Below are positions 11,700 through 29,308 of a DNA stretch of 35,451 nt, in pieces. The stretch covers positions 1-35,451 of the IMG/VR virus record IMGVR_UViG_2695420367_000003; one strand, 5' to 3'. The DNA is from a virus. Lineage: Duplodnaviria; Heunggongvirae; Uroviricota; Caudoviricetes. The stretch's first letter is position 1. Every line of letters begins with the position of its first letter. A program made the translations under genes and the position numbers. Below the pieces are notes generated by a model. The model made no database searches. It saw only the letters and a list, made by a program, of their open reading frames with translations, and was not told the origin of the DNA.

Positions 11700-11900
11700 T
11701 GACCTGAGCTCTCACGGGGCGGAAGGCGCGCGGGTTTTCGCTATTTATGAAAATTTTCCGGTTTAAGGCGTTTCCGTTCTTCTTCGCCGTAACTTAATGT
11801 TTTTATTTAAAACCCCCCCTGAAAAGAAAGGAAACGACAGATGCTGAAAACGGGCTTTTTGGCCTTTGTCGTTTCCTTTCTCTGTTTTTGTCCGTGGAAT
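11700..11900 (+). promoter_or_regulatory. cos: Helper cos site (cosN-like 12-mer at about 11717-11728, plus cosB with R sites and IHF site) upstream of Nu1
   Basis: …GGGCGGAAGGCG CGCGGGTTTTCGCTATTTATGAAAATTTTCCGGTTTAAGGCGTTTCCGTTCTTCTTCG… is nearly identical to the lambda cos region as I recall it, except within the 12-mer. Confidence 0.8.
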
Positions 11901-11905
11901 GAACA

Positions 11906-12425
11906 ATGGAAGTCAACAAAAAGCAGCTGGCTGATATTTTCGGTGCGAGTATCCGTACCATTCAGAACTGGCAGGAGCAGGGAATGCCCGTTCTGCGAGG
12001 CGGTGGCAAGGGTAATGAGGTGCTTTATGATTCTGCCGCCGTCATAAAATGGTATGCCGAAAGGGATGCTGAAATTGAGAACGAAAAGCTGCGCCGGGAA
12101 GTTGAAGAACTGCGGCAGGCCAGCGAGGCAGATCTCCAGCCAGGGACTATTGAGTACGAACGCCATCGACTTACGCGTGCGCAGGCCGACGCACAGGAGC
12201 TGAAGAATGCCAGAGACTCCGCTGAAGTGGTGGAAACCGCATTCTGTACTTTCGTGCTGTCGCGGATCGCAGGTGAAATTGCCAGTATTCTCGACGGGAT
12301 CCCCCTGTCGGTGCAGCGGCGTTTTCCGGAACTGGAAAACCGACATATTGATTTCCTGAAACGGGATATCATCAAAGCCATGAACAAAGCAGCCGCACTG
12401 GATGAACTGATACCGGGGTTGCTGA

Positions 12426-12451
<26 letters not shown>
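11906..12451 (+). CDS. Nu1: Terminase small subunit Nu1
   Basis: MEVNKKQLADIFGASIRTIQNWQEQGMPV… matches lambda gpNu1. Confidence 0.95.
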
Positions 12452-16132
<3,681 letters not shown>

Positions 16133-16152
<20 letters not shown>

Positions 16153-17452
16153 TCTCCCGCATATTGCCAGTATGGCCTTTAATGAGCCGCTGATGCTTGA
16201 ACCCGCCTATGCGCGGGTTTTCTTTTGTGCGCTTGCAGGCCAGCTTGGGATCAGCCGCCTGACGGATGCGGTGTCCGGCGACAGCCTGACTGCCGGAGAG
16301 GCACCCGCGACGCTGGCGTTATCCGGTGATGATGGCGGGCCACGACAGGCCCGCAGTTATCAGGTCATGAACGGCATCGCCGTGCTGCCGGTGTCCGGCA
16401 CGCTGGTCAGCCGGACGCGGGCGCTGCAGCCGTATTCGGGGATGACCGGTTACAACGGCATTATCGCCCGTCTGCAACAGGCTGCCAGCGATCCGATGGT
16501 GGACGGCATTCTGCTCGATATGGACACACCGGGCGGGATGGTGGCGGGAGCATTTGACTGTGCTGACATCATCGCCCGTGTGCGTGACATAAAGCCGGTA
16601 TGGGCGCTGGCCAACGACATGAACTGCAGTGCAGGTCAGCTGCTTGCCAGCGCCGCCTCCCGGCGTCTGGTCACGCAGACCGCCCGGACAGGCTCCATCG
16701 GCGTCATGATGGCTCACAGTAATTACGGTGCTGCGCTGGAGAAACAGGGTGTGGAAATCACGCTGATTTACAGCGGCAGCCATAAGGTGGATGGCAACCC
16801 CTACAGCCATCTACCGGATGATGTCCGGGAAACACTGCAGTCCCGGATGGATGCAACCCGCCGGATGTTTGCACAGAAGGTGTCGGCATATACCGGCCTG
16901 TCCGTGCAGGCTGTGCTGGATACCGAGGCTGCAGTGTACAGCGGTCAGGAGGCCATTGATGCCGGACTGGCTGATGAACTTGTTAACAGTACCGATGCGA
17001 TCACCGTCATGCGTGATGCACTGGATACACGTAAATCCCGTCTCTCAGGAGGGCGAATGACCAAAGAGACTCAATCAACAACTGTTTCAGCCACTGCTTC
17101 GCAGGCTGACGTTACTGGCGTGGTGCAAGCGACGGAGGGCGAGAACGCCAGCGCGGCGCAGCCGGACGTGAACGCGCAGATCACCGCAGCGGTTGCGGCA
17201 GAAAACAGTCGCATTATGGGGATCCTCAACTGTGAGGAGGCTCACGGACGCGAAGAACAGGCACGCGTGCTGGCCGAAACCCCCGGTATGACCGTGGAAA
17301 CGGCCCGCCGCATTCTGGCAGCTGCACCACAGAGTGCACAGGCGCGCAGTGACACTGCGCTGGATCGTCTGATGCAGGGGGCACCGGCACCGCTGGCTGC
17401 AGGTAACCCGGCATCTGATGCCGTTAACGATTTGCTGAACACACCAGTGTAA
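16133..17452 (+). CDS. C: Head protease/scaffold protein C (GTG start)
   Basis: MTAELRNLPHIASMAFNEPLMLEP… matches lambda gpC; 20-nt overlap with B as in lambda; the track ORF start at 16019 is upstream of the true start. Confidence 0.9.
16847..17452 (+). CDS. Nu3: Scaffolding protein Nu3 (internal in-frame start within C)
   Basis: In-frame ATG (MDATRR…) 714 nt downstream of the C start, the same offset as lambda Nu3 relative to C. Confidence 0.7.
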   Translation: MDATRRMFAQKVSAYTGLSVQAVLDTEAAVYSGQEAIDAGLADELVNSTDAITVMRDALDTRKSRLSGGRMTKETQSTTVSATASQADVTGVVQATEGENASAAQPDVNAQITAAVAAENSRIMGILNCEEAHGREEQARVLAETPGMTVETARRILAAAPQSAQARSDTALDRLMQGAPAPLAAGNPASDAVNDLLNTPV

Positions 17453-17461
17453 GGGATGTTT

Positions 17462-17794
17462 ATGACGAGCAAAGAAACCTTTACCCATTACCAGCCGCTG
17501 GGCAACAGTGACCCGGCACATACGGCAACCGCGCCCGGCGGATTGAGTGCGAAAGCGCCTGCAATGACCCCGCTGATGCTGGATACCTCCACCCGTAAGC
17601 TGGTTGCGTGGGATGGCACCACCGACGGTGCTGCCGTTGGCATTCTGGCGGTTGATGCTGACCAGACCAGCACCACGCTGACGTTCTACAAGTCCGGCTC
17701 GTTCCGTTATGAGGATGTGCTCTGGCCGGAGGCTGCCAGCGACGAGACGAAAAAACGGACCGCGTTTGCCGGAACGGCAATCAGCATCGTTTAA
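17462..17794 (+). CDS. D: Head decoration protein D
   Basis: [40 protein letters not shown]… matches lambda gpD; AAGGGA RBS. Confidence 0.95.
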
Positions 17795-17849
17795 CCTTAC
17801 CCTTCATCACTAAAGGCCGCCTGTGCGGCTTTTTTTACGGGATTTTTTT

Positions 17850-18125
17850 ATGTCGATGTACACAACCGCCCAGCTGCTGGCGGCAAATGAGCAGAAATTT
17901 AAGTTTGATCCGCTGTTTCTGCGTCTCTTTTTCCGTGAGAGCTATCCCTTCACCACGGAGAAAGTCTATCTCTCACAAATTCCGGGACTGGTAAACATGG
18001 CGCTGTACGTTTCGCCGATTGTTTCCGGTGAGGTTATCCGCTCCCGTGGCGGCTCCACCTCTGAATTTACGCCGGGATATGTCAAACCCAAGCACTTAGC
18101 ATGGCTTTCTGAGGCTTTCGTGTAG
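17850..18125 (+). pseudogene. E: Major capsid protein E, 5' portion only (codons 1 to about 82), interrupted by the satellite insertion
   Basis: MSMYTTAQLLAANEQKFKFDPLFLRLFF…SEFTPGYVKPKH matches the lambda gpE N-terminus, then diverges into 9 unrelated codons and a stop at the insertion junction. Confidence 0.9.
18085..18094. repeat. Left junction core (attL-like) AACCCAAGCA
   Basis: Identical 10-mer at 28518-28527; joining the flanks restores …GTCAAACCCAAGCATGAAGTG… (VKPKHEV of E). Confidence 0.75.
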
Positions 18126-18257
18126 TTGCTGGTTTTTACACTTAATCTTTTGATAATAAAGAATAAGTTTATCTGGCGCTTTCACTGGATTTTCCTCGTT
18201 ATCTGTGTGTTGCAATCATCTCTGTATTGCAGCTTGTATTGCTTTTTGGGGCTAAAA

Positions 18258-19493
18258 ATGGCTGGCGAGAACAAACTGAGCGACAAAGCACTTAAAGGAT
18301 ATCTGGGGAAACCCAGAGAAAAGCAGATCACCATTGCTGATGGAAAGGGGCTTTCTATTCGTGTGAGTACCAAGGGGGCTGTGAGCTTTGTTTTCTTCTA
18401 CAGGTTAGCAGGTGGCCGGGCTGCTCCGGTCTGGCTAACGTTGGGTAAATATCCTGATATGTCACTCAAACAGGCAAGGGAAAAGCGCGACGAGTGCCGT
18501 GGTTGGTTGGCTGACAAACGTGATCCGCGTATCCAGATTAAGATTCAGGCTGAAGAACGCTTAAAGCCGGTCACAGTGGAGGATGCACTAAATTACTGGT
18601 ATGAAAATTACTGTAAGGTGCGTCGTAAAACTCATGCTGTAACGCTTGGCAGATTTCGAAAGCATATCTTTCCCTATATCGGTCATTTGCCCGTAAATGA
18701 CACTCACCTATATGAATGGCTGGACTGTTTTGACCGAATTAAACGTAATGCACCAGTTATGGCGGCGTATGTTTTTTCTGACACTAAATTAGCTCTTCGT
18801 TTTTGTCGGGTACGCCAGTACGCGACGTGTGATGCTTTAAAGGATTTGCGCATGAGTGATGTGGGGCAGATTGCAGGTAAGCGGGATCGGGTTCTGGATG
18901 AAGCCGAACTGGGCCAGCTCTGGAAGGCAATTTTTGTCGAGCCTGATTTAAAACTAATGTCTGAATACACGCGAAAAATGTTTGTGCTTTGTACAGTATT
19001 TGGATGTCGAATGAGTGAAGCCCGATTATCAGAATGGAGCGAATGGGATCTCGAAAGTTGGGTTTGGACTGTACCAAAAGATCACTCAAAAACTGGTGTT
19101 GAAATCGTCAGACCAGTACCTGAAATTCTACGACAGTGGGTAACGGATGTTCACGAAGAGACAAAACATACTGGTTATGTGCTGGGAAGTCTGCGAATTA
19201 GAGAAAGCGTAAGCAAGATTGGGGGGAAAATCGGTAAACGTTTGGGCCATGAAAAACAATGGTCACTACACGACCTTAGAAGAACGCTTTCAACCCATCT
19301 GAGTGATTTGGGCGTTGAGTTTCATGTAGTGGAGCAGCTGTTAGGCCATGCGCTACCTGGCGTGGCAGGTGTTTACAACCGGAGTAAGTTTATGGCTAAA
19401 AAACTGGATGCTCTGGAACTCTGGACTACATATCTCAATAGCATCGCAGCTGCTGATTCAAAAGTGACAATCCTCAAACAAAAGGCTGGTTAA
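18258..19493 (+). CDS. int: Tyrosine integrase (P4-type, with N-terminal arm-binding domain)
   Basis: N-terminal …LSDKALKGYLGKPREKQITIADGKGLSIRVSTKGAVSFVFFYR…; catalytic-region motifs HDLRRT…LLGH…VYNRS; true ATG at 18258, the track start is upstream. Confidence 0.88.
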   Translation: MAGENKLSDKALKGYLGKPREKQITIADGKGLSIRVSTKGAVSFVFFYRLAGGRAAPVWLTLGKYPDMSLKQAREKRDECRGWLADKRDPRIQIKIQAEERLKPVTVEDALNYWYENYCKVRRKTHAVTLGRFRKHIFPYIGHLPVNDTHLYEWLDCFDRIKRNAPVMAAYVFSDTKLALRFCRVRQYATCDALKDLRMSDVGQIAGKRDRVLDEAELGQLWKAIFVEPDLKLMSEYTRKMFVLCTVFGCRMSEARLSEWSEWDLESWVWTVPKDHSKTGVEIVRPVPEILRQWVTDVHEETKHTGYVLGSLRIRESVSKIGGKIGKRLGHEKQWSLHDLRRTLSTHLSDLGVEFHVVEQLLGHALPGVAGVYNRSKFMAKKLDALELWTTYLNSIAAADSKVTILKQKAG

Positions 19494-19494
19494 C

Positions 19495-19728
19495 ATGAAA
19501 AAAATGGCAATTGTCGATAAAAAGGGTCTGGAGTACATTCCTAACATTGACCGTATGATCCGCGAAAAAGAATGCCGTGAGTTAACTACTCTTGCTAATA
19601 GCACTCGATGGAAGTTAGAGAAAGAAGGAAAGTTTCCAAAGCGTATTAAAATAGGTGCCACTGCCGTAGCATATCGCCTTTCGGAGGTGCAGGCGTGGAT
19701 TCGTGGGGAATGGTACTTAAATAAGTAA
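19495..19728 (+). CDS. alpA: AlpA-family HTH regulator/excisionase-like protein
   Basis: …ECRELTTLANSTRWKLEKEGKFPKRIKIGATAVAYRLSEVQAWI… fits the AlpA pattern; directly follows int. Confidence 0.8.
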   Translation: MKKMAIVDKKGLEYIPNIDRMIREKECRELTTLANSTRWKLEKEGKFPKRIKIGATAVAYRLSEVQAWIRGEWYLNK

Positions 19729-19736
19729 ATCATTTC

Positions 19737-19765
19737 AATTAGGTAGGTTTATTACCTACCTAATT
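19737..19765. terminator. Perfect palindrome AATTAGGTAGGT-TTATT-ACCTACCTAATT between convergent genes (bidirectional terminator candidate)
   Basis: Seen directly: 12-bp perfect inverted repeat with a 5-nt loop, between the alpA stop and the stop of the minus-strand 241-aa gene. Confidence 0.6.
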
Positions 19766-19768
19766 AAT

Positions 19769-20494
19769 TTAAATCATGTCTGCCTTATTTCCTAATTTTA
19801 TGGAGCAATCCTCTAAAAGATGCCCGATGAACTTATGAGTTCCAATAACATAATCTTGAAGCCTATATTCCATTCCTAATAATGACTTGTTCTCTTTGTC
19901 CTTGAAAAAAGGAAAAGAGGCAAGGTTTTCATCGACAATATAAAGGTGTTTGATTTTGTTGTTTAAAACCCTAGTTTCGTTAATGACATCGTAAGAATCA
20001 AGTTGGGAGAGGTCAATACCATAACTTAAGTATTTCTTTTTTAATTTATCCCATGTATATGGAACTTTAACTTGACTTTCAGGTATTTCTTTAATAATTG
20101 CTTCTAGCAAAGAGTATGCCATGGTACTAAACTGTTCAATAATAGCCCAAAGATTAATTACGACACTGTCATTGGCAAAAAATGAGGCTTTTCTATTAAG
20201 ATCATCATAATAACCAACCATCTCTCTATGTCTGGCTTGAGAAATCAAGGCCATTTCATGCACTTCATCGTCTAATAAGTCTGGATTATATTGGGGAGTG
20301 TTGTCTGCAATTTTTTGTATCTCCTTAAGATTTATGTTATATGTATGATAAACAAATGAGTGAAATACTATTAGATCTTCAAGTCGGAACGAAAATTTCC
20401 CAAGTAGAGACAGGAATCTACTATCATGAGGGAAATAATGTGGGATAGGATTGTCTGTTAAATTATATTCACTTATTCGTTTTAGATTTTGCAT
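19769..20494 (-). CDS. Hypothetical 241-aa protein, AT-rich cargo (function unknown)
   Basis: Long ORF, visibly AT-rich versus surrounding genes, co-oriented and 24 nt downstream of the RHH gene; no motif I recognise. Confidence 0.6.
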   Translation of the reverse strand: MQNLKRISEYNLTDNPIPHYFPHDSRFLSLLGKFSFRLEDLIVFHSFVYHTYNINLKEIQKIADNTPQYNPDLLDDEVHEMALISQARHREMVGYYDDLNRKASFFANDSVVINLWAIIEQFSTMAYSLLEAIIKEIPESQVKVPYTWDKLKKKYLSYGIDLSQLDSYDVINETRVLNNKIKHLYIVDENLASFPFFKDKENKSLLGMEYRLQDYVIGTHKFIGHLLEDCSIKLGNKADMI

Positions 20495-20518
20495 CTCTCA
20501 CAGATCCTTTTAAAAGTC

Positions 20519-20713
20519 TTAACCTCTAGGTTCAATACCTTGTTTGCGTAGTTCTGCTCTTGCTAGTTCTTTAAGCCAATTAGCCAAACTCATTCCTTCT
20601 TTTGCAGCCGCACTAACCATTTGTTCTTTTAGTTCCGGGTGGATACGGATCTGAAATGCCGGTGCCTTACCAGCACCTTTCGGCTGTTTATCGCGCTGAA
20701 TGATAGTTGACAT
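20519..20713 (-). CDS. Ribbon-helix-helix (CopG/Arc-like) DNA-binding protein; candidate repressor or antitoxin
   Basis: 64 aa; …FQIRIHPELKEQMVSAAAKEGMSLANWLKELARAEL… is typical of RHH proteins; first gene of a leftward operon diverging from the replication module. Confidence 0.65.
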   Translation of the reverse strand: MSTIIQRDKQPKGAGKAPAFQIRIHPELKEQMVSAAAKEGMSLANWLKELARAELRKQGIEPRG

Positions 20714-20716
20714 GTA

Positions 20717-20817
20717 TGTACCTATTGCTTAGTATGCTTCTTGATAGGTACACACCTTATCATGTTTTATTACTCTGTAACAACGCCCTGCAGTGCTCGC
20801 AACACATACAGGGCGTT
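20717..20817. promoter_or_regulatory. Divergent control region with two 9-bp inverted repeats, each with an 18-bp spacer
   Basis: TGTACCTAT…ATAGGTACA (20717-20752) and AACGCCCTG…CAGGGCGTT (20782-20817), between the divergent RHH gene and the 20853 ORF. Confidence 0.5.
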
Positions 20818-20852
20818 TAACCACCAACGATAGCAACAGTATCGAGGTAGCT

Positions 20853-21056
20853 ATGAGAAATCATACCACACACCCGCAAGGGCGGGACCCGCACAACCTG
20901 AATAAATACATCTGGCGTTTTATCGCCCTGAGTACGGCACAACCGCGCGTGATTACCATCGAGGCCACCAGCGAACAGGAAGCCCGCCAGCAATCCCCAA
21001 CTGGCTGCGTGATGATATTCGCCGCCCGTATTCGTCAGGAGGTGTGCCATGAATGA
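20853..21056 (+). CDS. Hypothetical small protein (67 aa)
   Basis: GAGGTAG RBS before the ATG; first gene of the rightward operon leading to the primase. Confidence 0.5.
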   Translation: MRNHTTHPQGRDPHNLNKYIWRFIALSTAQPRVITIEATSEQEARQQSPTGCVMIFAARIRQEVCHE

Positions 21057-21273
21057 TCTTTATTTGAAAGTGCTGACACATGCTGAAAACGCGCTCGTTT
21101 GTGGCAAAAATATGCGAGAAATCTTATCAACCTGGCTTGATGGGACAACAAATGCGGAACACGATGAACGGGATGCTAATTTAGCTGGAGCGTTAATTAC
21201 GTTACTTGATCCTGTCATCAAAGAGCTGGATGAAGCTATAAAAATACACGACCAGAGCTATACCGGAGAATAA
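21049..21273 (+). CDS. Hypothetical small protein (74 aa)
   Basis: AGGAGGTG RBS; start overlaps the upstream ORF stop. Confidence 0.5.
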   Translation: MNDLYLKVLTHAENALVCGKNMREILSTWLDGTTNAEHDERDANLAGALITLLDPVIKELDEAIKIHDQSYTGE

Positions 21274-21276
21274 AAA

Positions 21277-21564
21277 ATGAAAAATAAATTTTCTGGCTTT
21301 ATTGCCAGCGGTCAAACTCATTCAAAAATCAGCCTTGGGGATATTTTCAAAGACAGCTATGGCTATCGGGTAAAGATTATTTCGGTTGATGATCGTCGTG
21401 TCTCTTATTTGCGTGATGGTTATGATTTTGAATGTGTTATGCCGCGTCAGCAGTTCGAAAGAGATTTCATTCTGGTAAAAAATTGCAAGACAGATAATCA
21501 GAGGCGTGCCGCAGGCTATATCCGTAAAATTCGGGCAATGTTAGTTGCCGGAGGTAACAAATGA
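21277..21564 (+). CDS. Hypothetical small protein (95 aa)
   Basis: GGAGAA RBS; stop overlaps the primase start. Confidence 0.5.
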   Translation: MKNKFSGFIASGQTHSKISLGDIFKDSYGYRVKIISVDDRRVSYLRDGYDFECVMPRQQFERDFILVKNCKTDNQRRAAGYIRKIRAMLVAGGNK

Positions 21565-23381
21565 AACGTGCTCCGAACTTAAAATACCAACCGCGCGACA
21601 AAATGACGGAAGTCATCATTTTTGCTGGCAGTGATGCCTGGAGCCATGCAAAAGAATGGAATGAATGGGCAGGTAAGCATATTGCAGCAGATGATACACC
21701 ACCAGTCATTCTGGGTACAGAACAACTGGAAAACCTGGATGATATGCAAATTATCGATGAAGGCCGTCATTATGTGCGTGTTTATCGTGCTGGAAAGATT
21801 GCAGAGAAAAGTCTGACGAAGGTTGCGACATTACTTGCTATTGCAGGCGTAAAGGAAGCACGTTGTTACCGTAGCTTTGTTGATCGAGAGCCTGAAGACT
21901 GGACTCCGCGCCTTGTCGGCCTAAAAGCTGAAGCGGAGCATGGGGAAAGTCTGGTGATTGAACTGCCAGTGAAGAAGGCAGAGCGCAAAAATGACGAGCG
22001 TGCTTCATCTTTGGCGTTGAATCAGATGGGGGCCAGCCAGCGCGGTGAAGTTCTCCTTGCACATTACGGCGGCGAACTGGCAATCAATGCCGACTCTGAC
22101 ACCGTTCATCATTACAACGGCGTTGTATGGGAGCCGGTTCAGGATAAAGAGTTACAGCGTGCTATGGCGCAGATTTTCATTGATGCGGAGATCAGCTATT
22201 CGCAGAACGCTATTAAATCGGCGGTAGATACCATGAAGTTAAGTTTGCCTGTAATGGGGAATACAGCCCGTAACCTGATTGGATTCAGTAACGGGGTATT
22301 TGATACCAGAACTGGTAATTTTCGGGAGCATAACAAAAACGACTGGTTGTTAATTGCCAGTGAATTACCTTTCAGCCCACCAGCAGAGGGGGAAACGCTG
22401 GCAACACATGCGCCGAATTTCTGGAAGTGGTTGCGCCGTTCGGTGGCTGAGAATGACCGCAAGGCAGATCGCGTACTGGCGGCATTATTCATGGTGCTGG
22501 CGAACCGGTACGACTGGCAGTTATTCATTGAGGTAACAGGGCCGGGGGGAAGTGGTAAAAGTGTGATGGCGGAGATTTGCACCATGCTGGCGGGTAAGGC
22601 GAATACAGTATCAGCAAGCATGAAGGCGCTGGAAGATGCAAGGGAACGTGCGTTAGTGGTTGGCTTTTCGCTGATTATCATGCCGGATATGACCCGCTAC
22701 GCTGGTGATGGGGCAGGGATTAAGGCCATTACAGGCGGTGACAAGGTGGCAATTGACCCGAAACACAAAGCCCCCTATTCAACGCGTATTCCGGCAGTAG
22801 TGCTGGCGGTTAACAATAACGCCATGTCATTCAGTGACCGCAGCGGGGGGATCTCACGTCGTCGGGTGATATTCAATTTTTCGGAAGTTGTACCGGAGAA
22901 CGAACGCGATTCGATGCTGGCGGAAAAAATAGAAGGTGAGCTGGCGGTAGTGATTCGTCATCTGCTTACACGGTTTGCTGATCAGGACGAAGCCAGACGC
23001 CTGTTATATGAGCAGCAGAAATCTGAAGAAGCACTGGCGATAAAGCGAGAGGGGGATTCGCTGGTGGACTTCTGCGGCTATCTCATGGCATCGGTAATGT
23101 GTGATGGCCTGTTAGTGGGTAATGCTGAAATTGTGCCATTCAGCCCACGCAGGTATCTCTATCATGCCTATCTGGCTTATATGAGGGCACATGGGTTTGG
23201 TAAACCTGTAACACTGACGCGCTTCGGTAAAGATATGCCGGGGGCAATGGCGGAATATGGCAGGGAGTATATGAAACGGAAAACGAAGCACGGTTTGCGT
23301 TCAAACGTGACACTGACGGAGGAATCAGAAGACTGGATGCCATCATGTGTATCGGTCACTAATGACGATAGCAAAAATTAA
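21561..23381 (+). CDS. Phage/plasmid primase-helicase (P4-alpha-like domain with SF3 helicase Walker A GPGGSGKS)
   Basis: 606 aa; Walker A and downstream helicase-like motifs; immediately followed by the iteron array. Confidence 0.85.
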   Translation: MKRAPNLKYQPRDKMTEVIIFAGSDAWSHAKEWNEWAGKHIAADDTPPVILGTEQLENLDDMQIIDEGRHYVRVYRAGKIAEKSLTKVATLLAIAGVKEARCYRSFVDREPEDWTPRLVGLKAEAEHGESLVIELPVKKAERKNDERASSLALNQMGASQRGEVLLAHYGGELAINADSDTVHHYNGVVWEPVQDKELQRAMAQIFIDAEISYSQNAIKSAVDTMKLSLPVMGNTARNLIGFSNGVFDTRTGNFREHNKNDWLLIASELPFSPPAEGETLATHAPNFWKWLRRSVAENDRKADRVLAALFMVLANRYDWQLFIEVTGPGGSGKSVMAEICTMLAGKANTVSASMKALEDARERALVVGFSLIIMPDMTRYAGDGAGIKAITGGDKVAIDPKHKAPYSTRIPAVVLAVNNNAMSFSDRSGGISRRRVIFNFSEVVPENERDSMLAEKIEGELAVVIRHLLTRFADQDEARRLLYEQQKSEEALAIKREGDSLVDFCGYLMASVMCDGLLVGNAEIVPFSPRRYLYHAYLAYMRAHGFGKPVTLTRFGKDMPGAMAEYGREYMKRKTKHGLRSNVTLTEESEDWMPSCVSVTNDDSKN

Positions 23382-23394
23382 ACTTATGGAATAA

Positions 23395-23620
23395 CTGTTC
23401 ACCACTGTTCACCCTGTCATAAATATCTTTTATATCAGTATATTATAGGGTGAACAGTTATTTATGAACTGTTCACCAAACTATTCACTGTTCACCTTTT
23501 TGATTGTTTATTGAGCTTCAAGGGTGAACAGTGGTGAACAGTTGGTGAATAGTTTTTGTGAAACTGTTCACCCATTAACATTATGAATTAAAAGAGAAAA
23601 TATCAAAAGGTGAACAGGTG
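23395..23620. repeat. Satellite replication origin: at least 10 copies of the iteron GGTGAACAG/CTGTTCACC in both orientations
   Basis: Seen directly: the motif recurs at about 23396, 23406, 23449, 23469, 23489, 23524, 23534, 23545 (variant), 23565 and 23610 within an AT-rich stretch downstream of the primase. Confidence 0.8.
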
Positions 23621-23668
23621 AAGGGTTAAAACGCAAAAATTTTAATTTACTGCTGTGAGATAAAGCCT

Positions 23669-23914
23669 ATGACAGCGAAGCACACAAAAAAATCACAATC
23701 GCACGCCCTTGATTTGACGGAACACTGGTTAAGGGTGTCGATAAAAATCATCGACCGCAACGCCGGGGAAGGATACGCGAAAGCACATCCCGAACTGATT
23801 AGCGCATTCATGACAACGGCGGCTGCAAACTTTGCCACTCTGACCGAACGGGAGATTGCTGAAGCGGAGGAAGTGACAACAATCAATATTAAGTCCGGAG
23901 AGCAGGCAGCATGA
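23669..23914 (+). CDS. Hypothetical protein (81 aa)
   Basis: ORF overlapping the SSB-like gene start; no recognisable motif. Confidence 0.45.
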   Translation: MTAKHTKKSQSHALDLTEHWLRVSIKIIDRNAGEGYAKAHPELISAFMTTAAANFATLTEREIAEAEEVTTINIKSGEQAA

Positions 23915-24360
23915 TGGCGCAAATATCAGTTTACGGGCGGTTGGTGGACGACCCGCAGACAAAACAGACCAGCAAGGGCACCCCCATGACGCTGGCGCGT
24001 ATGGCGGTATCAATGCCCTGCAGTCAGTCGGATGACGGTCAGGCGACGATGTGGTTATCTGTCCTGGCGTTTGGCAGACAAGCCGACGCACTGGCAAAGC
24101 ATCACAAAGGCGAACTCCTGAGCGTGGCGGGTAACATGCAGATGAGCCAGTGGACTGGACAGAACGGCGAAACGCGGCAGGGCTGGCAGGTTATCGCAGA
24201 CAGCGTAATCAGTGCGCGATCGGTGCGACCGGGCGGCAAAAAAGGCCAACAGGGGCAGGCTACTGACGAACTGAACAGAGCAAAACAACAGGCAGATCAG
24301 CAAGGAAGCCAGCCACCAGTGGGAGATAATGAGCAATGGGGAGATGATATCCCGTTTTAA
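23911..24360 (+). CDS. SSB-like single-stranded DNA-binding protein with C-terminal acidic DDIPF tail
   Basis: OB-fold-like N-terminal region parallels E. coli SSB; Gly/Gln-rich linker; C-terminal …EQWGDDIPF. Confidence 0.7.
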   Translation: MMAQISVYGRLVDDPQTKQTSKGTPMTLARMAVSMPCSQSDDGQATMWLSVLAFGRQADALAKHHKGELLSVAGNMQMSQWTGQNGETRQGWQVIADSVISARSVRPGGKKGQQGQATDELNRAKQQADQQGSQPPVGDNEQWGDDIPF

Positions 24361-24375
24361 ATATTGCCAATAAAA

Positions 24376-24401
24376 AAGGCCGGAAAAAATAAATTTTCCG
24401 G
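24376..24401. terminator. Hairpin GCCGGAAAA-AATAAA-TTTTCCGGC downstream of the SSB-like gene
   Basis: Perfect inverted repeat with A-rich and T-rich arms; a possible terminator or attenuator before the capsid genes. Confidence 0.4.
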
Positions 24402-24576
24402 CATGCTACATAAATCCCGACCAAAGGGAGTGAAGATATTAACACTAATTGTCCGCACTGAAGTTGTCACCCCAAAACTTTATACAACATTGCACTCGGT
24501 TGCATGTGTTCGCATGACAAATATCGGTGGTAGCATATATCCACAATTATTTTTAATGAATGCAAAGAGGATGCGT

Positions 24577-25617
24577 ATGGTTGATTTATATTCGCCTACT
24601 CAGCTTGTACAGGTGGTTAATGCTGTAGATGTACAAAAACAACTAAATGCGTTGTTTACCAGTTTGTTTTTTACTCGCTCGGTAATGTTTGAATCGCGCG
24701 ATATTATTCTTGATACAATCGACGATCCAAATATCCCAATTGCAGCGTTTTGTTCTCCTATGGTGGGTAGTAAAGTTTCACGTGACGAAGGGTACGAATC
24801 AAAAACAATTCGTCCAGGCTATATGAAGCCGAAAAGCAGCATTGATCCAAATAAGTTAGCTGTGCGCCCTGCTGGTGTATCACCTGAGCAATACAATGCT
24901 TTTGGGGCACGTAATATTAAAGTTAAACAGGCGATTGTAAATCAAGCTAAAGCTATTCGTGCACGTATTGAATGGCTTGCTGTTCAGGCAATCACAACGG
25001 GGAAAAATATCATTGAGGGCGATGGTATTGAACGTTATGAGCTGGACTGGAATATTAAACCACAAAATATCATCACTCAGTCTGGCGGTGCTGAGTGGTC
25101 AGGTAAGGATAAAGAAACTTTTGATCCAAATGATGATATTGAGAGCTACGCAGAATTTAGTGAGGGCGTCACTAATATTATCATTATGGGCGGTAATGTA
25201 TGGAAGAAATACCGTTCATTCAGAGCGATAAAAGAGGCTCTGGATACCCGTCGTGGTTCTAATTCCGAACTGGAAACGGCCCTTAAAGACCTTGGTGATT
25301 CGGTGAGTTTTAAAGGGTATATGGGCGATGTTGCGATTGTTGTATACAGCGGGCGTTATACCGACGAGGACGGAACTGAAAAACATTTCCTTGATCCTGA
25401 TTTGATGGTGCTTGGCAATACGGCTCTTCAGGGGATTGTCGCCTATGGCGGTATTCAGGATCCGGAGCTAATCCGAATGGGGCTGACTAAAGCCGAACTT
25501 GCACCGAAAAACTATATTGTGCCTGGTGATCCGGCTATTGAATATGTGCAGACACATTCAGCACCACAGCCAATACCGGCCCGCATCAATCGTTTTGTTA
25601 CCGTTCGCATTGGCTAA
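24577..25617 (+). CDS. Satellite-encoded major capsid protein, diverged homolog of lambda gpE
   Basis: C-terminal 180 aa align to lambda E (…SGGAEWSGKDKETFDPNDDIESYA…LDTRRGSNSELETALKDLG…GDVAIVVYSG…); N-terminal half diverged but collinear (RPGYMKPKS vs TPGYVKPKH); GAGG RBS 6 nt before the ATG at 24577. Confidence 0.85.
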   Translation: MVDLYSPTQLVQVVNAVDVQKQLNALFTSLFFTRSVMFESRDIILDTIDDPNIPIAAFCSPMVGSKVSRDEGYESKTIRPGYMKPKSSIDPNKLAVRPAGVSPEQYNAFGARNIKVKQAIVNQAKAIRARIEWLAVQAITTGKNIIEGDGIERYELDWNIKPQNIITQSGGAEWSGKDKETFDPNDDIESYAEFSEGVTNIIIMGGNVWKKYRSFRAIKEALDTRRGSNSELETALKDLGDSVSFKGYMGDVAIVVYSGRYTDEDGTEKHFLDPDLMVLGNTALQGIVAYGGIQDPELIRMGLTKAELAPKNYIVPGDPAIEYVQTHSAPQPIPARINRFVTVRIG

Positions 25618-25626
25618 GGGGGAGCA

Positions 25627-25968
25627 ATGGCTACTCATTACACTGAACTCATGGCTGGCACTGAAGCACTGGTGACTACACTGGGGATATTTTCAGCTAA
25701 TAAAGGGGTAATTCATGCATTTACGCCACTGATGCAGGAAGATGCAACAGGTGCACTGGTGGTATGGGATGGTTCGAGCGTAGGTAAAGCGGTTTATGTT
25801 TCCGCTGTACAAATCGACACCGCGAAAAAAACACAGGCTCAGGTCTATAAGACAGGTGTCTTAAATGTTGATGCTCTGAACTGGCCTGAGTCTGTTAAAG
25901 AACTGTCAGTAAAGGTTGCAGCGTTTGTTGGCTCAGGTATTTCTGTTCAGCCGCTGGCTCGTGTGTAA
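25627..25968 (+). CDS. Satellite-encoded head decoration protein, diverged homolog of lambda gpD
   Basis: 113 aa; shares the spaced pattern TPLM…WDG…G…Q.YK.G…WPE…AF.G..ISV with lambda D (copy at 17462-17794). Confidence 0.65.
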   Translation: MATHYTELMAGTEALVTTLGIFSANKGVIHAFTPLMQEDATGALVVWDGSSVGKAVYVSAVQIDTAKKTQAQVYKTGVLNVDALNWPESVKELSVKVAAFVGSGISVQPLARV

Positions 25969-25979
25969 AGGGGGATACA

Positions 25980-26363
25980 ATGCAGAATGATTACAATGAC
26001 CTTAAGCCAATTGCCGAAATGATGTACCCGAATCAAGCTGTAGAGGAATTAAAAGCTATCGCTGACAAAATGTGTTTAAGCGAGCGCCTTGTTGATATGA
26101 ATCAGGTGATGGAAATTACAACCCTGAGTCGTCGTACACTGCTAAACCTTGAGGCTAGTGGAGAGTTCCCGGAGCGTGTGCAGGTTACGGAAGGGCGTAA
26201 GGCCTGGTATTTAAGTGAAGTGATCGACTGGATAAATAATATTCCTCGCGCTTCTGAATATTGCCGCGTACCTGTCCCAAAAAAGCCAGATGCGGCGCTA
26301 TGCCTCAAGATTGAGCGTGTACGCCGCAATGCACGGGATGGTCGCTATAAGCTGATTGGTTGA
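25980..26363 (+). CDS. HTH DNA-binding protein (AlpA/MerR-like motif) adjacent to satellite cos
   Basis: …MEITTLSRRTLLNLEASGEFPERVQVTEGRKAWYLSEVIDWI… helix-turn-helix; last gene before cos. Confidence 0.6.
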   Translation: MQNDYNDLKPIAEMMYPNQAVEELKAIADKMCLSERLVDMNQVMEITTLSRRTLLNLEASGEFPERVQVTEGRKAWYLSEVIDWINNIPRASEYCRVPVPKKPDAALCLKIERVRRNARDGRYKLIG

Positions 26364-26413: not shown

Positions 26414-26600
26414 GTTACGGGGCGTCAGGCGCGCAGATTCTTGCTATTTATGACAATTTTCTGCGATTTGCCGTTTCCGTTCTTCTTCCTCGTAACTTAG
26501 TGTTTTTACTAGAAATACCCTCTTAAAAGAAAGGAAATGACAGGTGCTGAAAACAGGCTTTTGGGTCTCCGTCATTTCCTTTCTCATTTTTATCTAAAAG
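26414..26600 (+). promoter_or_regulatory. cos: Satellite cos site (cosN-like 12-mer at about 26420-26431 plus cosB-like R and IHF elements), no terminase gene attached
   Basis: About 190 bp closely similar to the helper cos region (…CGTTTCCGTTCTTCTTC…AAAAGAAAGGAAA.GACAG.TGCTGAAAAC.GGCTTTT…TTTCCTTTCTC…); not followed by Nu1. Confidence 0.8.
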
Positions 26601-26846: not shown

Positions 26847-28163
26847 TTATCTTGAAGAAATTTTAGGCAGGCTTTTTAAAAATAAATCTTTATTTCTACT
26901 TGCATCAGTTAAAAGTGTTAGGAATATTTTATCTGTAGGAGTGCATGTGCTCTTGTTTAACAGTAATTCACCAAGTTTCTGTAATCGAGAGAATTGCCCA
27001 TCCTCTTGGATTCTGTGACGAAGTGTACTATCATTTTTAATAACATCAACAAATGCAGAAACCATGTTAATATCAAAGTATTCAAACATTTCCAATATTA
27101 AAGGTGCAGCCCCATTTGAATAAAAATTCTTCCTTCCATACTGATAGCTGAAACCACGATGGCCAACATAAGTTTTTGTAATGGCTGAAACAAATTCAAC
27201 AATATTATCTTCAGGGACGAAACTCGAGAATGGTAATAATTGGGTTACGATTTTTTCCTCTTCTGACCAATTATCTAAAGACTCGGTGAGTTTATTAATG
27301 AGAGGCTCAATAATAACTTTTCGGGATGCAGGGCTAATATACATCAGTCCATCTACCAATAGTATGAATTGTTGTGCCTTCTCTATCTTATTGTTGTTTC
27401 CTGAAACTAAATACTTGTCAAATTGTTGGCCGACTTTACGTCGGTCGTCTTTTGAAAGTAATGTCCATAAAATAGGTGCGCAAAATTCAATGTTGTTTCT
27501 GAGTTCACTTGATATATTGGATGAGCAGTATGTGCCAAAAAAACGAGAGGATAATTCACTGATATAAATTGCAGGTAGATCTGAAAAGGCTTGCTTAACT
27601 GCCAGACTATTTTTATTAAATGTTGCCGAATCCATTTCTGAAAGATATGTAGATATATCTATGATGGCTGGTGGAAACTCTTTAGAAAGAACGTATTTAT
27701 TACAATCATTAATCAGGTTCACTACTTTGATTAAATCAGGGTCGCTACTTTGTGGATGTCCACCAAATAGATTCCTGGTTTCTCTAGCTTGTTGTAATAG
27801 TTTCTGACCTTCTCGATCGATAACTCCTATTTTAAATGCTCCATCTATTAAATCAAAGTCGCTCACATAATCCTGAAAATCTTCATACGTTTTAATTTCT
27901 TTTTTTTGTTTACACTCTTTGTTGAATAGATCTAGGCTACGATGAATTATCTTTTGACGTAAATCATCAACTACAGCATTCCAGTAAGCAGTGATGGCAC
28001 TTCTATAACCTTTTACAGGAAGAACTCTTATTGCTTCTGAAATATATGGGCAGTCAACTACATCATGCCTCACAGTTGAGAGCGCAGTTTGTAACAATGT
28101 AACTTCTGTAGAGTCTAGTGGAGTTGGCTGCACTAAATGAGAACTTATCTCTGTACCCTTCAT
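26847..28163 (-). CDS. Hypothetical 438-aa protein, AT-rich cargo (function unknown; candidate accessory or defence gene)
   Basis: Long uninterrupted ORF, visibly AT-rich, between satellite cos and the right junction; no motif I recognise. Confidence 0.6.
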   Translation of the reverse strand: MKGTEISSHLVQPTPLDSTEVTLLQTALSTVRHDVVDCPYISEAIRVLPVKGYRSAITAYWNAVVDDLRQKIIHRSLDLFNKECKQKKEIKTYEDFQDYVSDFDLIDGAFKIGVIDREGQKLLQQARETRNLFGGHPQSSDPDLIKVVNLINDCNKYVLSKEFPPAIIDISTYLSEMDSATFNKNSLAVKQAFSDLPAIYISELSSRFFGTYCSSNISSELRNNIEFCAPILWTLLSKDDRRKVGQQFDKYLVSGNNNKIEKAQQFILLVDGLMYISPASRKVIIEPLINKLTESLDNWSEEEKIVTQLLPFSSFVPEDNIVEFVSAITKTYVGHRGFSYQYGRKNFYSNGAAPLILEMFEYFDINMVSAFVDVIKNDSTLRHRIQEDGQFSRLQKLGELLLNKSTCTPTDKIFLTLLTDASRNKDLFLKSLPKISSR

Positions 28164-28517
28164 TTCAGGATTTTCCTATTCTTTTCCATTTTTCTACTCT
28201 ATTGAATTTGAAAAAGATATCAAGTTCGTTCTTGCCAGTTTTAAGTGGAAAAATTGATGTTACCTTATTGAGATAAGGCAGTTCTCTATAACCTATTGTT
28301 ATTAATTATTTTTATTTTTTTTCCAATTCAGATGTTTAGGGCTAAGAAGTTAAGTGAGAGTTCACAGCAAAACTGCTTCTAGTTCCTCACCGAGGAGCAA
28401 AAGGTTAAGACAGCGTACTTTGTATTGCACAATGTATTGCAGAACCTTCTTTCGAAAGCTACAACAATCAATTTTATATTGAAAATTCAATCATATCCTT
28501 TCGATATTGACTCATAT

Positions 28518-28527
28518 AACCCAAGCA
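28518..28527. repeat. Right junction core (attR-like) AACCCAAGCA
   Basis: Identical to 18085-18094; the downstream sequence continues in the E reading frame. Confidence 0.75.
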
Positions 28528-29308
28528 TGAAGTGAATCCGCAGATGACCCTGCGTCGCCTGCCGGATGAAGATCCGCAGAATCTGGCGGACCCGGCTTAC
28601 CGTCGCCGTCGCATCATCATGCAGAACATGCGTGACGAAGAGCTGGCCATTGCCCAGGTGGAAGAGATGCAGGCAGTTTCTGCCGTGCTTAAGGGCAAAT
28701 ACACCATGACCGGTGAAGCCTTCGATCCGGTTGAGGTGGATATGGGTCGCAGTGCGGCGAATAACATCACGCAGTCCGGCGGCACGGAGTGGAGTAAGCG
28801 TGATAAGTCCACGTATGACCCGACCGACGATATCGAAGCCTACGCGCTGAACGCCAGCGGTGTGGTGAATATCATCGTGTTTGATCCGAAAGGCTGGGCG
28901 CTGTTCCGTTCCTTCAAAGCCGTCAGGGAGAAGCTGGATACCCGTCGCGGCTCTCATTCCGAACTGGAGACAGCGGTAAAAGACCTGGGCAAAGCGGTGT
29001 CTTATAAGGGAATGTATGGCGATGTGGCCATCGTCGTGTATTCCGGACAGTACGTGGAAAATGGTGTCAAAAAGAACTTCCTGCCGGACAACACGATGGT
29101 GCTGGGCAACACTCAGGCACGCGGTCTGCGCACCTATGGCTGCATTCAGGATGCGGACGCACAGCGCGAAGGCATTAACGCCTCTGCCCGTTACCCGAAA
29201 AACTGGGTGACCACCGGCGATCCGGCGCGTGAGTTCACCATGATTCAGTCAGCACCGCTGATGCTGCTGGCTGACCCTGATGAGTTCGTGTCCGTACAAC
29301 TGGCGTAA
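28520..29308 (+). pseudogene. E: Major capsid protein E, 3' portion (codons about 80 to 341), separated from its 5' portion by the satellite
   Basis: …KHEVNPQMTLRRLPDEDPQNLADPAYRRRRIIMQNMRDEELAIAQ… to the C-terminus …DPDEFVSVQLA matches lambda gpE; no own start codon or RBS. Confidence 0.9.

Follow-up and report, generated by a model that had tools for sequence, protein, structure and literature searches.

A satellite of the helper-embedded type splits the capsid gene E of a lambda-like prophage, and its precise excision would rebuild the gene

What interrupts the capsid gene E of a lambda-like prophage, can the gene be put back together, and what would give the signal? These questions are raised by the IMG/VR virus record IMGVR_UViG_2695420367_000003, of which we analyzed positions 1 to 35,451 (35,451 nucleotides; hereafter the window), the middle portion of such a prophage. 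We found that E is broken by a 10.4-kb satellite, a phage-inducible chromosomal island (PICI) that inserted in the helper gene via its own tyrosine integrase and lies co-oriented with the helper late operon. By its sequence, the island belongs to the helper-embedded PICI (HE-PICI) site group E:Phage_cap_E:80, every testable defining feature of which is present. Taken as a whole, the locus is very probably best explained as an HE-PICI in E, with precise excision that rebuilds E and a cycle that may be set in the late phase of the helper.

The two pieces of E and the repeats that bound the island are as follows.
17850-18125, + strand: E', the 5' fragment of E (codons 1-82, then 9 satellite codons and TAG), from translation
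18085-18094, + strand: attL core, AACCCAAGCA, an exact 10-bp repeat
28518-28527, + strand: attR core, AACCCAAGCA, the other copy of the exact 10-bp repeat
28528-29308, + strand: 'E, the 3' fragment of E (codons 83-341 and the stop), from translation and the join

The break falls at E codons 79-82, and the distance between the attL and attR cores, 10,433 bp, is the length of the island. The open reading frame (ORF) of E' encodes 91 aa, 82 E residues followed by LAWLSEAFV, with its TAG stop at 18123-18125; in homologous loci its counterpart bears the annotation "major capsid protein, missing C-terminus". In the 3' fragment, none of the start codons is in the frame of E. Because the insertion supplies no replacement sequence from attP (E' enters nine foreign codons and a stop, and a 341-aa ORF arises only through the join at the core), helper E stays inactive for as long as the satellite is inserted. 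The first-pass annotation of this DNA had predicted that joining the flanks at the core would give an intact E through AAG CAT GAA GTG. The join indeed reads AAA CCC AAG CAT GAA GTG, within an ORF of 1026 nt and 341 aa whose product aligns over residues 1-341 to the major capsid protein of lambda (PDB 7VI9) and differs from it by four substitutions. Over its 320 bp, the rebuilt junction matches the uninterrupted capsid gene of Escherichia coli 2021CK-01784 at 100% identity, and the same operation rebuilds an intact E in all three loci tested, with zero frame errors; one of the three has the synonymous core variant AGCCGAAGCA at both ends. We conclude that recombination at the core restores, in silico, a full-length lambda-like E. 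The proposal that a satellite sits in the helper capsid gene and that precise excision restores E is thus borne out, in silico for this window and, in the case of the element of E. coli NRG857c with its 99% identity, experimentally by quantitative PCR (qPCR) and deep sequencing.

A lone 10-bp repeat could arise randomly, and we therefore considered whether the arrangement is a chance direct repeat or an assembly artefact that juxtaposes unrelated sequences. The repeat lies exactly where E breaks and resumes in frame, and 170 of 5,426 complete E. coli genomes, from diverse hosts, contain the D-E'-int-alpA junction; these two facts exclude it. In addition, attL and attR agree with published alignments (PMC10111431), we found nothing in its support, and we give it practically no weight. 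The uninterrupted, empty E site occurs in 3,102 of the same 5,426 genomes, so that the occupied site is present in ~3% of complete E. coli genomes and ~5% of those that carry a lambda-E-type capsid gene. The published estimate is that ~5.4% of E. coli genomes contain an HE-PICI (PMC10111431), and our 170 occupied versus ~3,100 empty sites are in line with it.

The genes expected to move the island lie at its left end, and the attachment arms at both ends.
18095-18257, + strand: P' arm of attP, that is, the spacer from E' to int, with a match to the integration host factor (IHF) consensus and a doubled TGTATTGC
18258-19493, + strand: int, a tyrosine integrase of 411 aa (Pfam Arm-DNA-bind_3 and Phage_integrase)
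19495-19728, + strand: alpA, 77 aa (Pfam Phage_AlpA, E = 6.5e-15)
28164-28527, + strand: P arm of attP, with a doubled TGTATTGC (28419-28441) and the attR core

Int and alpA had been placed at these coordinates on the strand of the late genes, with int beginning 132 nt past the stop of the truncated E; we confirmed coordinates, strand, and families, and the interval runs from the stop at 18123-18125 to the ATG at 18258. Only 1 nt separates the stop of int from the start of alpA (GGTTAACATG). Int, alpA, and the satellite primase gene are all on the + strand, co-oriented with the helper genes Nu1 to E and FI to H. In the P' arm the doubled TGTATTGC occupies 18221-18243 and ends 15 nt before the int ATG; relative to the attP centre, the doubled motifs lie 81.5 nt upstream (28419-28441) and 131.5 nt downstream (18221-18243). 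A hallmark of HE-PICIs is a doubled tgTGTATTGCantgTGTATTGCa, of which two co-oriented copies flank the attP centre, at 81 +/- 2 bp on the upstream side and at 132 +/- 2 bp on the downstream side (PMC10111431), and the spacing in the window fits it. The general anatomy is also that of a PICI, for which a size of about 10-15 kb and a four-zone organisation are the accepted marks (PMC6092414; PMC10111431): the island measures 10,433 bp, and its Pfam and PHROG matches fall into ordered zones: Integration (int and alpA), variable/Bro, Replication (primase and single-stranded DNA-binding protein), and Late (captured head genes).

The type helper-embedded PICI is Eco567.11capE of E. coli NRG857c, an 11-kb island that disrupts the lambda-E-like capsid gene of a prophage at icd, is bounded by a 10-bp identity block, and has its own capsid gene (Tommasini, Mageeney and Williams, NAR Genom Bioinform 2023, PMC10111431). 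The island described here resembles it closely. The integrases are identical at 408 of 411 aa, and since the identity to the type member is 99%, no tree is necessary to assign ours to integrase subclade 11capE. AlpA is identical at 72 of 75 positions (96%), and the spacer between E' and int, which places int 132 nt from the E' stop, is near-identical and essentially the same in four aligned loci. The target codon is the same, and the core AACCCAAGCA equals the block given for Eco567.11.E_Phage_cap_E_80 in Supplementary File 1 of PMC10111431. Both elements have the int/alpA side co-oriented with the late operon and share one gene order: int, alpA, a variable zone, DUF4222, primase, single-stranded DNA-binding protein (SSB), E-like capsid, D-like decoration, an AlpA-like helix-turn-helix (HTH) protein, a cos-like site, and cargo. 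A cos-like segment shared by satellite and helper is reported for the type element too (PMC10111431).

The two elements differ mainly in cargo. The left zone here holds a 241-aa ORF and an Arc/HicB-like gene, compared with a 178-aa hypothetical gene and a YlcI/YnfO-family gene in NRG857c; the right slot holds a 438-aa phrog_27609 protein, compared with HEPN and DUF262 genes. The island is 10,433 bp here and 11,077 bp in Eco567.11capE, and the helper has a slightly divergent E and different morons from the NRG857c helper. The configuration, the site, the excision behaviour, and the hypothesis of late read-through are all already known from PMC10111431, with which the interpretation in the first-pass annotation coincides; the novelty it implied does not hold, as both the configuration and the read-through hypothesis have been in print since 2023. 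The contribution of the window is minor: a further member whose two variable slots carry other cargo, a separate measure of site occupancy based on complete genomes, and notes on an IHF-like site and on a palindrome after alpA.

In strain N1420, the homologous locus has the core AGCCGAAGCA on both sides (18385-18394 and 28774-28783 of L001), a synonymous K-P-K variant. Satellite attP cores thus track synonymous variation in the helper capsid gene, and a core variant agcccaagca is listed too in the table of PMC10111431.

What, then, would trigger excision? The answer that the layout suggests lies upstream, in the helper late operon.
8648-9337, + strand: antiterminator gene Q, 229 aa (Pfam Phage_antiter_Q, E = 6e-94)
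9321-9349, + strand: pR'-like promoter, from a consensus scan, overlapping Q
9405-9431 and 9519-9535, + strand: two tR'-like hairpin/T-run terminators downstream of the pR'-like match
After Q, + strand: holin and lysis genes
11906-12451, + strand: Nu1 (Pfam Phage_Nu1)
12426-14351, + strand: A (Pfam GpA_ATPase/GpA_nuclease)
14348-14554, + strand: W (RefSeq annotation of the homologous locus L001)
14551-16152, + strand: B, portal (Pfam Phage_portal_2)
About 16133-17452, + strand: C, S49 protease (Pfam Peptidase_S49)
17456-17794, + strand: D, decoration (Pfam HDPD)
17812-17836, + strand: hairpin and T7 between D and E (-14.5 kcal/mol, z = -2.75)
3' of 'E, + strand: FI, FII, Z, U, V, G, T, and H (annotation of homologous loci)

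In the pR'-tR' layout of lambda, late transcription requires Q and turns terminator-resistant. The two tR'-like folds of the window reach -20.9 kcal/mol (z = -3.8) and -11.9 kcal/mol (z = -2.5), and from the likeness to lambda we infer that 9321-9535 serves as a Q-dependent start of the late operon. A polymerase that started at pR' and was modified by Q to resist termination would pass Nu1 to D and E' and enter int and alpA. The 1-nt junction between these genes means that a single transcript would yield both Int and AlpA. Int would then carry out recombination at the 10-bp core, with AlpA acting as excision directionality factor and as activator of the PICI cycle, so that satellite excision would be timed to the late phase of the helper and helper capsid synthesis would be delayed. 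The freed satellite would employ its own primase and SSB, its own E- and D-like head proteins, and its cos-like site together with the terminase, portal, and tails of the helper.

The first-pass annotation had seen no convincing terminator between E' and int, and our searches bear it out. Folded against dinucleotide shuffles, the spacer showed no excess structure (z = -0.66 over 18060-18270 and -0.07 over 18085-18145), and a separate hairpin-plus-T-run scan of the spacer gave as its sole candidate an irregular hairpin followed by T5 (18088-18137). A consensus terminator scan of the + strand over 17400-21300 had no match, but it also missed the D-E hairpin and its T7, probably because extension of the stem through A-T pairs uses up the T-run; we therefore give its negatives little weight and rely on direct folding and our own scan. 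The D-E hairpin itself (17812-17836) is invariant in four of four aligned loci and lies upstream of the entire E'-int junction, and any weak terminator in the spacer would be ignored by a Q-modified polymerase.

Published observations on the type element point the same way. After mitomycin C treatment of NRG857c, the composite of prophage plus satellite first leaves icd and replicates; excision of the satellite is seen only at 2 h and is precise, with attB (the restored E) and attP detected by qPCR and deep sequencing (PMC10111431). At each of the 14 published late-gene sites, the HE-PICIs point in the direction of their target gene, an agreement that chance would hardly produce. The authors give late-operon read-through into int as a hypothesis, and they use the term "regulated gene integrity" for the breaking and rebuilding of E, which they take to serve the satellite (PMC10111431). 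In the chromosomal PICI EcCICFT073, expressing AlpA is by itself enough to set off excision and replication (Fillol-Salom et al., ISME J 2018, PMC6092414). Given the co-orientation, the lack of a terminator, the Q gene and pR'/tR'-like signals upstream, and the published late timing, read-through from the late operon is plausible as the main trigger of excision, and we put its chances at about even. The stronger proposition, that cis read-through is both necessary and sufficient and replaces the diffusible alpA inducer of ordinary PICIs, we hold only tentatively and, on balance, slightly doubt. If it is true, the satellite would be a timer in the transcription unit of the helper that decides when the helper makes capsid protein.

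Several points weigh against these proposals. Read-through is only hypothesised in PMC10111431, and in the later literature we found citations of that paper but no test of read-through. Int is required when a satellite enters a lysogen whose late operon is silent, so the satellite needs a promoter of its own. In EcCICFT073, int and alpA are served by promoters of the island itself, with alpA induced in trans by the helper (PMC6092414), so read-through in cis may be both dispensable and, by itself, not enough. Relatives of HE-PICIs reside at off-target chromosomal sites and at tRNA-Phe, with no late operon upstream (PMC10111431). Virions or plaques were not recovered from the NRG857c composite (PMC10111431), so that the full life cycle is a putative one. 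Finally, the window stops within the prophage and does not include the helper repressor, integrase, and tail-fibre genes.

The points about relatives and entry are also what favours a different trigger: int and alpA would be driven by their own promoters, a diffusible helper factor would turn on alpA, transcription from pR' into int would be incidental, and embedding in E would serve just to block the helper capsid and to obtain passive replication. The int and alpA promoter regions of EcCICFT073 drive plasmid reporters, its AlpA activates its own expression, and its alpA is expressed more strongly, in trans, upon induction of lambda or phi80 lysogens (PMC6092414). The logic of a newly entered cell, in which Int is needed and the prophage late operon is silent, fits this account, as do the off-target and tRNA-Phe relatives (PMC10111431), and a weak promoter-like site does occur in the spacer at 18135-18164. 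This site, however, overlaps 18143-18155 (TAATCTTTTGATA), which fits the IHF consensus YAANNNNTTGATW, is its sole match on both strands of the 35-kb window, and is located in the P' arm 54-66 nt from the core; CAAGCAATTGATA is found at a similar offset in attL of HE-PICI site group B_Phage_portal_2_227 (Supplementary File 3, PMC10111431). From its sequence and position, 18143-18155 is probably where IHF binds in the intasome and not a promoter, and in view of the overlap 18135-18164 is probably no promoter, IHF binding being the likelier cause of its AT-rich sequence. Promoter-like matches in both arms are no commoner than in shuffles, the 1-nt gap between int and alpA leaves no room for an intergenic promoter, and the E'-int interval has no terminator. 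If outside transcription played no part, the co-orientation seen at 14 independent late-gene sites would be difficult to account for. Activation in trans with incidental read-through strikes us as a real possibility, though rather an unlikely one. Triggering in cis and in trans are not exclusive, and sequence alone cannot choose between them.

As a further promoter candidate we considered a "promoter swap", in which integration would cut off a P-arm promoter from int; the two 9-of-12 matches at 28452-28508 occur at shuffle-level frequency, and we rejected it. Downstream of alpA lies another element that may delimit the int-alpA unit.
19737-19765, no strand assigned: perfect palindrome with a 12-bp stem, AATTAGGTAGGT ... 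ACCTACCTAATT, between the convergent alpA and 241-aa ORF

Its folding energy is -16.2 kcal/mol (z = -4.25), a value that 0 of 200 shuffles reach, and it has no clear T-run on the + strand. Judged by its sequence, this palindrome is possibly a bidirectional terminator that closes the int-alpA unit, or a protein-binding site.

We also considered a dead-end insertion, a decaying and non-inducible prophage remnant in which the satellite is trapped and the reconstitution of E is historical, serving nothing today. The NRG857c composite gave no plaques or virions, many HE-PICI helpers look truncated (PMC10111431), and the satellite capsid gene of strain ET665 has an internal stop. Against decay, the helper genes O to H that we checked in this window are intact, with full-length ORFs and full-length family matches, and E rebuilds error-free in each of the three loci. 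Int has kept 99% identity across distant strains, 170 genomes carry the junction, and precise excision and replication have been observed in NRG857c (PMC10111431). We regard a dead end as very improbable.

Among known systems beyond the HE-PICIs, the closest parallels to the island are EcCICFT073 and the Gram-negative PICIs (Fillol-Salom et al., PMC6092414), with which it shares the int-alpA left end, a D5-type primase and replication module, and an E-family capsid gene, for which 3BQW is the closest solved structure. AlpA as activator of the cycle is a further parallel, and cos-type packaging by lambdoid helpers may be another. EcCICFT073 differs in that it resides at a chromosomal site (labelled phoQ in the att alignments of PMC10111431), is separate from its helper, and responds to induction in trans; our element is inside the helper late operon, disrupts a helper gene, and has the HE-PICI-specific doubled arm motif. 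P4 (int, the AlpA-like vis, and the alpha primase, with P2 as helper) has an integrase in the same larger clade (PMC10111431). Both elements have an AlpA-family excision/regulatory protein and a primase-helicase, and each carries a decoration gene, psu in P4 and a D-family gene here. In contrast to our element, P4 sits at a tRNA gene, engages in reciprocal trans-activation with P2, and has an RNA immunity factor.

Gene-splitting switches are known from Listeria, where prophage phi10403S sits in comK, and from Bacillus subtilis, where skin splits sigK and SPbeta splits spsM. As in these phage regulatory switches, an element that brings no replacement end splits the gene, and regulated precise excision rebuilds it when needed. 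The split gene here, however, belongs to the helper phage rather than the host, and the regulation is thought to serve the satellite; a comparison with regulated gene integrity has already been drawn in PMC10111431. HE-PICIs are a case of a parasite of a virus wired into the late transcription unit of that virus, holding a structural gene hostage until its exit. Such a satellite-helper relation is cis-regulatory, unlike the trans interactions of Staphylococcus aureus pathogenicity islands (SaPIs), ordinary PICIs, P4, and PICI-like elements (PLEs). The significance of cis-wired satellites belongs to the 2023 description (PMC10111431).

The genes of the satellite beyond alpA are arranged as follows.
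19769-20713, - strand: variable "Bro/dynamic" zone, a 241-aa ORF and a 64-aa Arc/HicB-like small DNA-binding protein
20707-26363, + strand: main satellite operon (Pfam, PHROG)
20707-20735, + strand: best promoter-like site of the region, 10 of 12 matches
Between the promoter-like site and the primase gene, + strand: an Icd-like/repressor-family ORF, then DUF4222 (Pfam/PHROG)
21561-23381, + strand: D5/DUF5906 primase-helicase (Pfam/PHROG)
23911-24360, + strand: SSB (Pfam/PHROG)
24574-25617, + strand: the satellite's own E-family capsid gene, product 42% identical to helper E
25627-25968, + strand: D-family decoration gene (Pfam/PHROG)
25980-26363, + strand: second AlpA-family HTH protein, 127 aa (phrog_2790, E = 3e-49)
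26417-26591, + strand: cos-like segment, 177 bp, 81% identical to helper 11714-11888, just 5' of Nu1
26847-28163, - strand: cargo gene, 438 aa, full-length match to phrog_27609 (unknown function)

The position of the second AlpA-family HTH gene, directly upstream of the cos-like segment, suggests a role for its product in packaging-site recognition. We considered and dropped the idea that it is a relative of a solved packaging-redirection protein, as its sole PDB match is a generic AlpA-family regulator (8C3T). Between 18085 and 28527 we found no ORF for a tail, lysis, portal, or large-terminase protein, in keeping with a Gram-negative PICI, an element that relies on its helper phage to form particles. 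An Rfam scan of the whole window at gathering thresholds had no match, and hence no P4-type C4/isrK immunity RNA; RNAs of the C4/isrK type are reported in some HE-PICIs (PMC10111431). The closest relative of the whole island is that of ET665 (L003; 91% coverage, 98.2% identity), in which the satellite capsid gene (L003 8826-9866) is annotated with an internal stop, suggesting that this gene is dispensable.

Both cargo slots vary among relatives. The left one is occupied by unrelated genes in NRG857c and ET665, and its 241-aa ORF here (19769-20494, - strand) has no match in Pfam, PHROGs, or PADLOC. The right-end slot holds HEPN and DUF262 genes in NRG857c and a small terminase gene in N1420. 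Our 438-aa protein has no match in Pfam or PADLOC, and PADLOC run on the two reverse-strand cargo ORFs and the Arc/HicB-like protein returned no defence-system match. Since slot contents vary among relatives, the 438-aa protein is a candidate for an undescribed anti-phage or accessory function.

Just 3' of the primase gene, at 23384-23572, repeats of the GGTGAACAGTT / AACTGTTCACC type occur in several copies (repeat families D6 and D13). They are probably the iterons of the satellite replication origin.

The left part of the window holds the remaining helper genes.
Left part of the window, + strand: replication genes O and P of the lambda-like prophage
1811-5719, + strand: helper moron, an inverse autotransporter of 1,302 aa, intimin/invasin-like (IAT_beta and Big_1/Invasin_D3 repeats)
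5756-6799, - strand: helper moron, a BD-FAE/alpha-beta hydrolase (esterase)
3' of the moron block and before Q, + strand: NinB, YbcO, and RusA

The moron block, made up of the inverse autotransporter and the hydrolase, is placed between replication gene P and the nin region.

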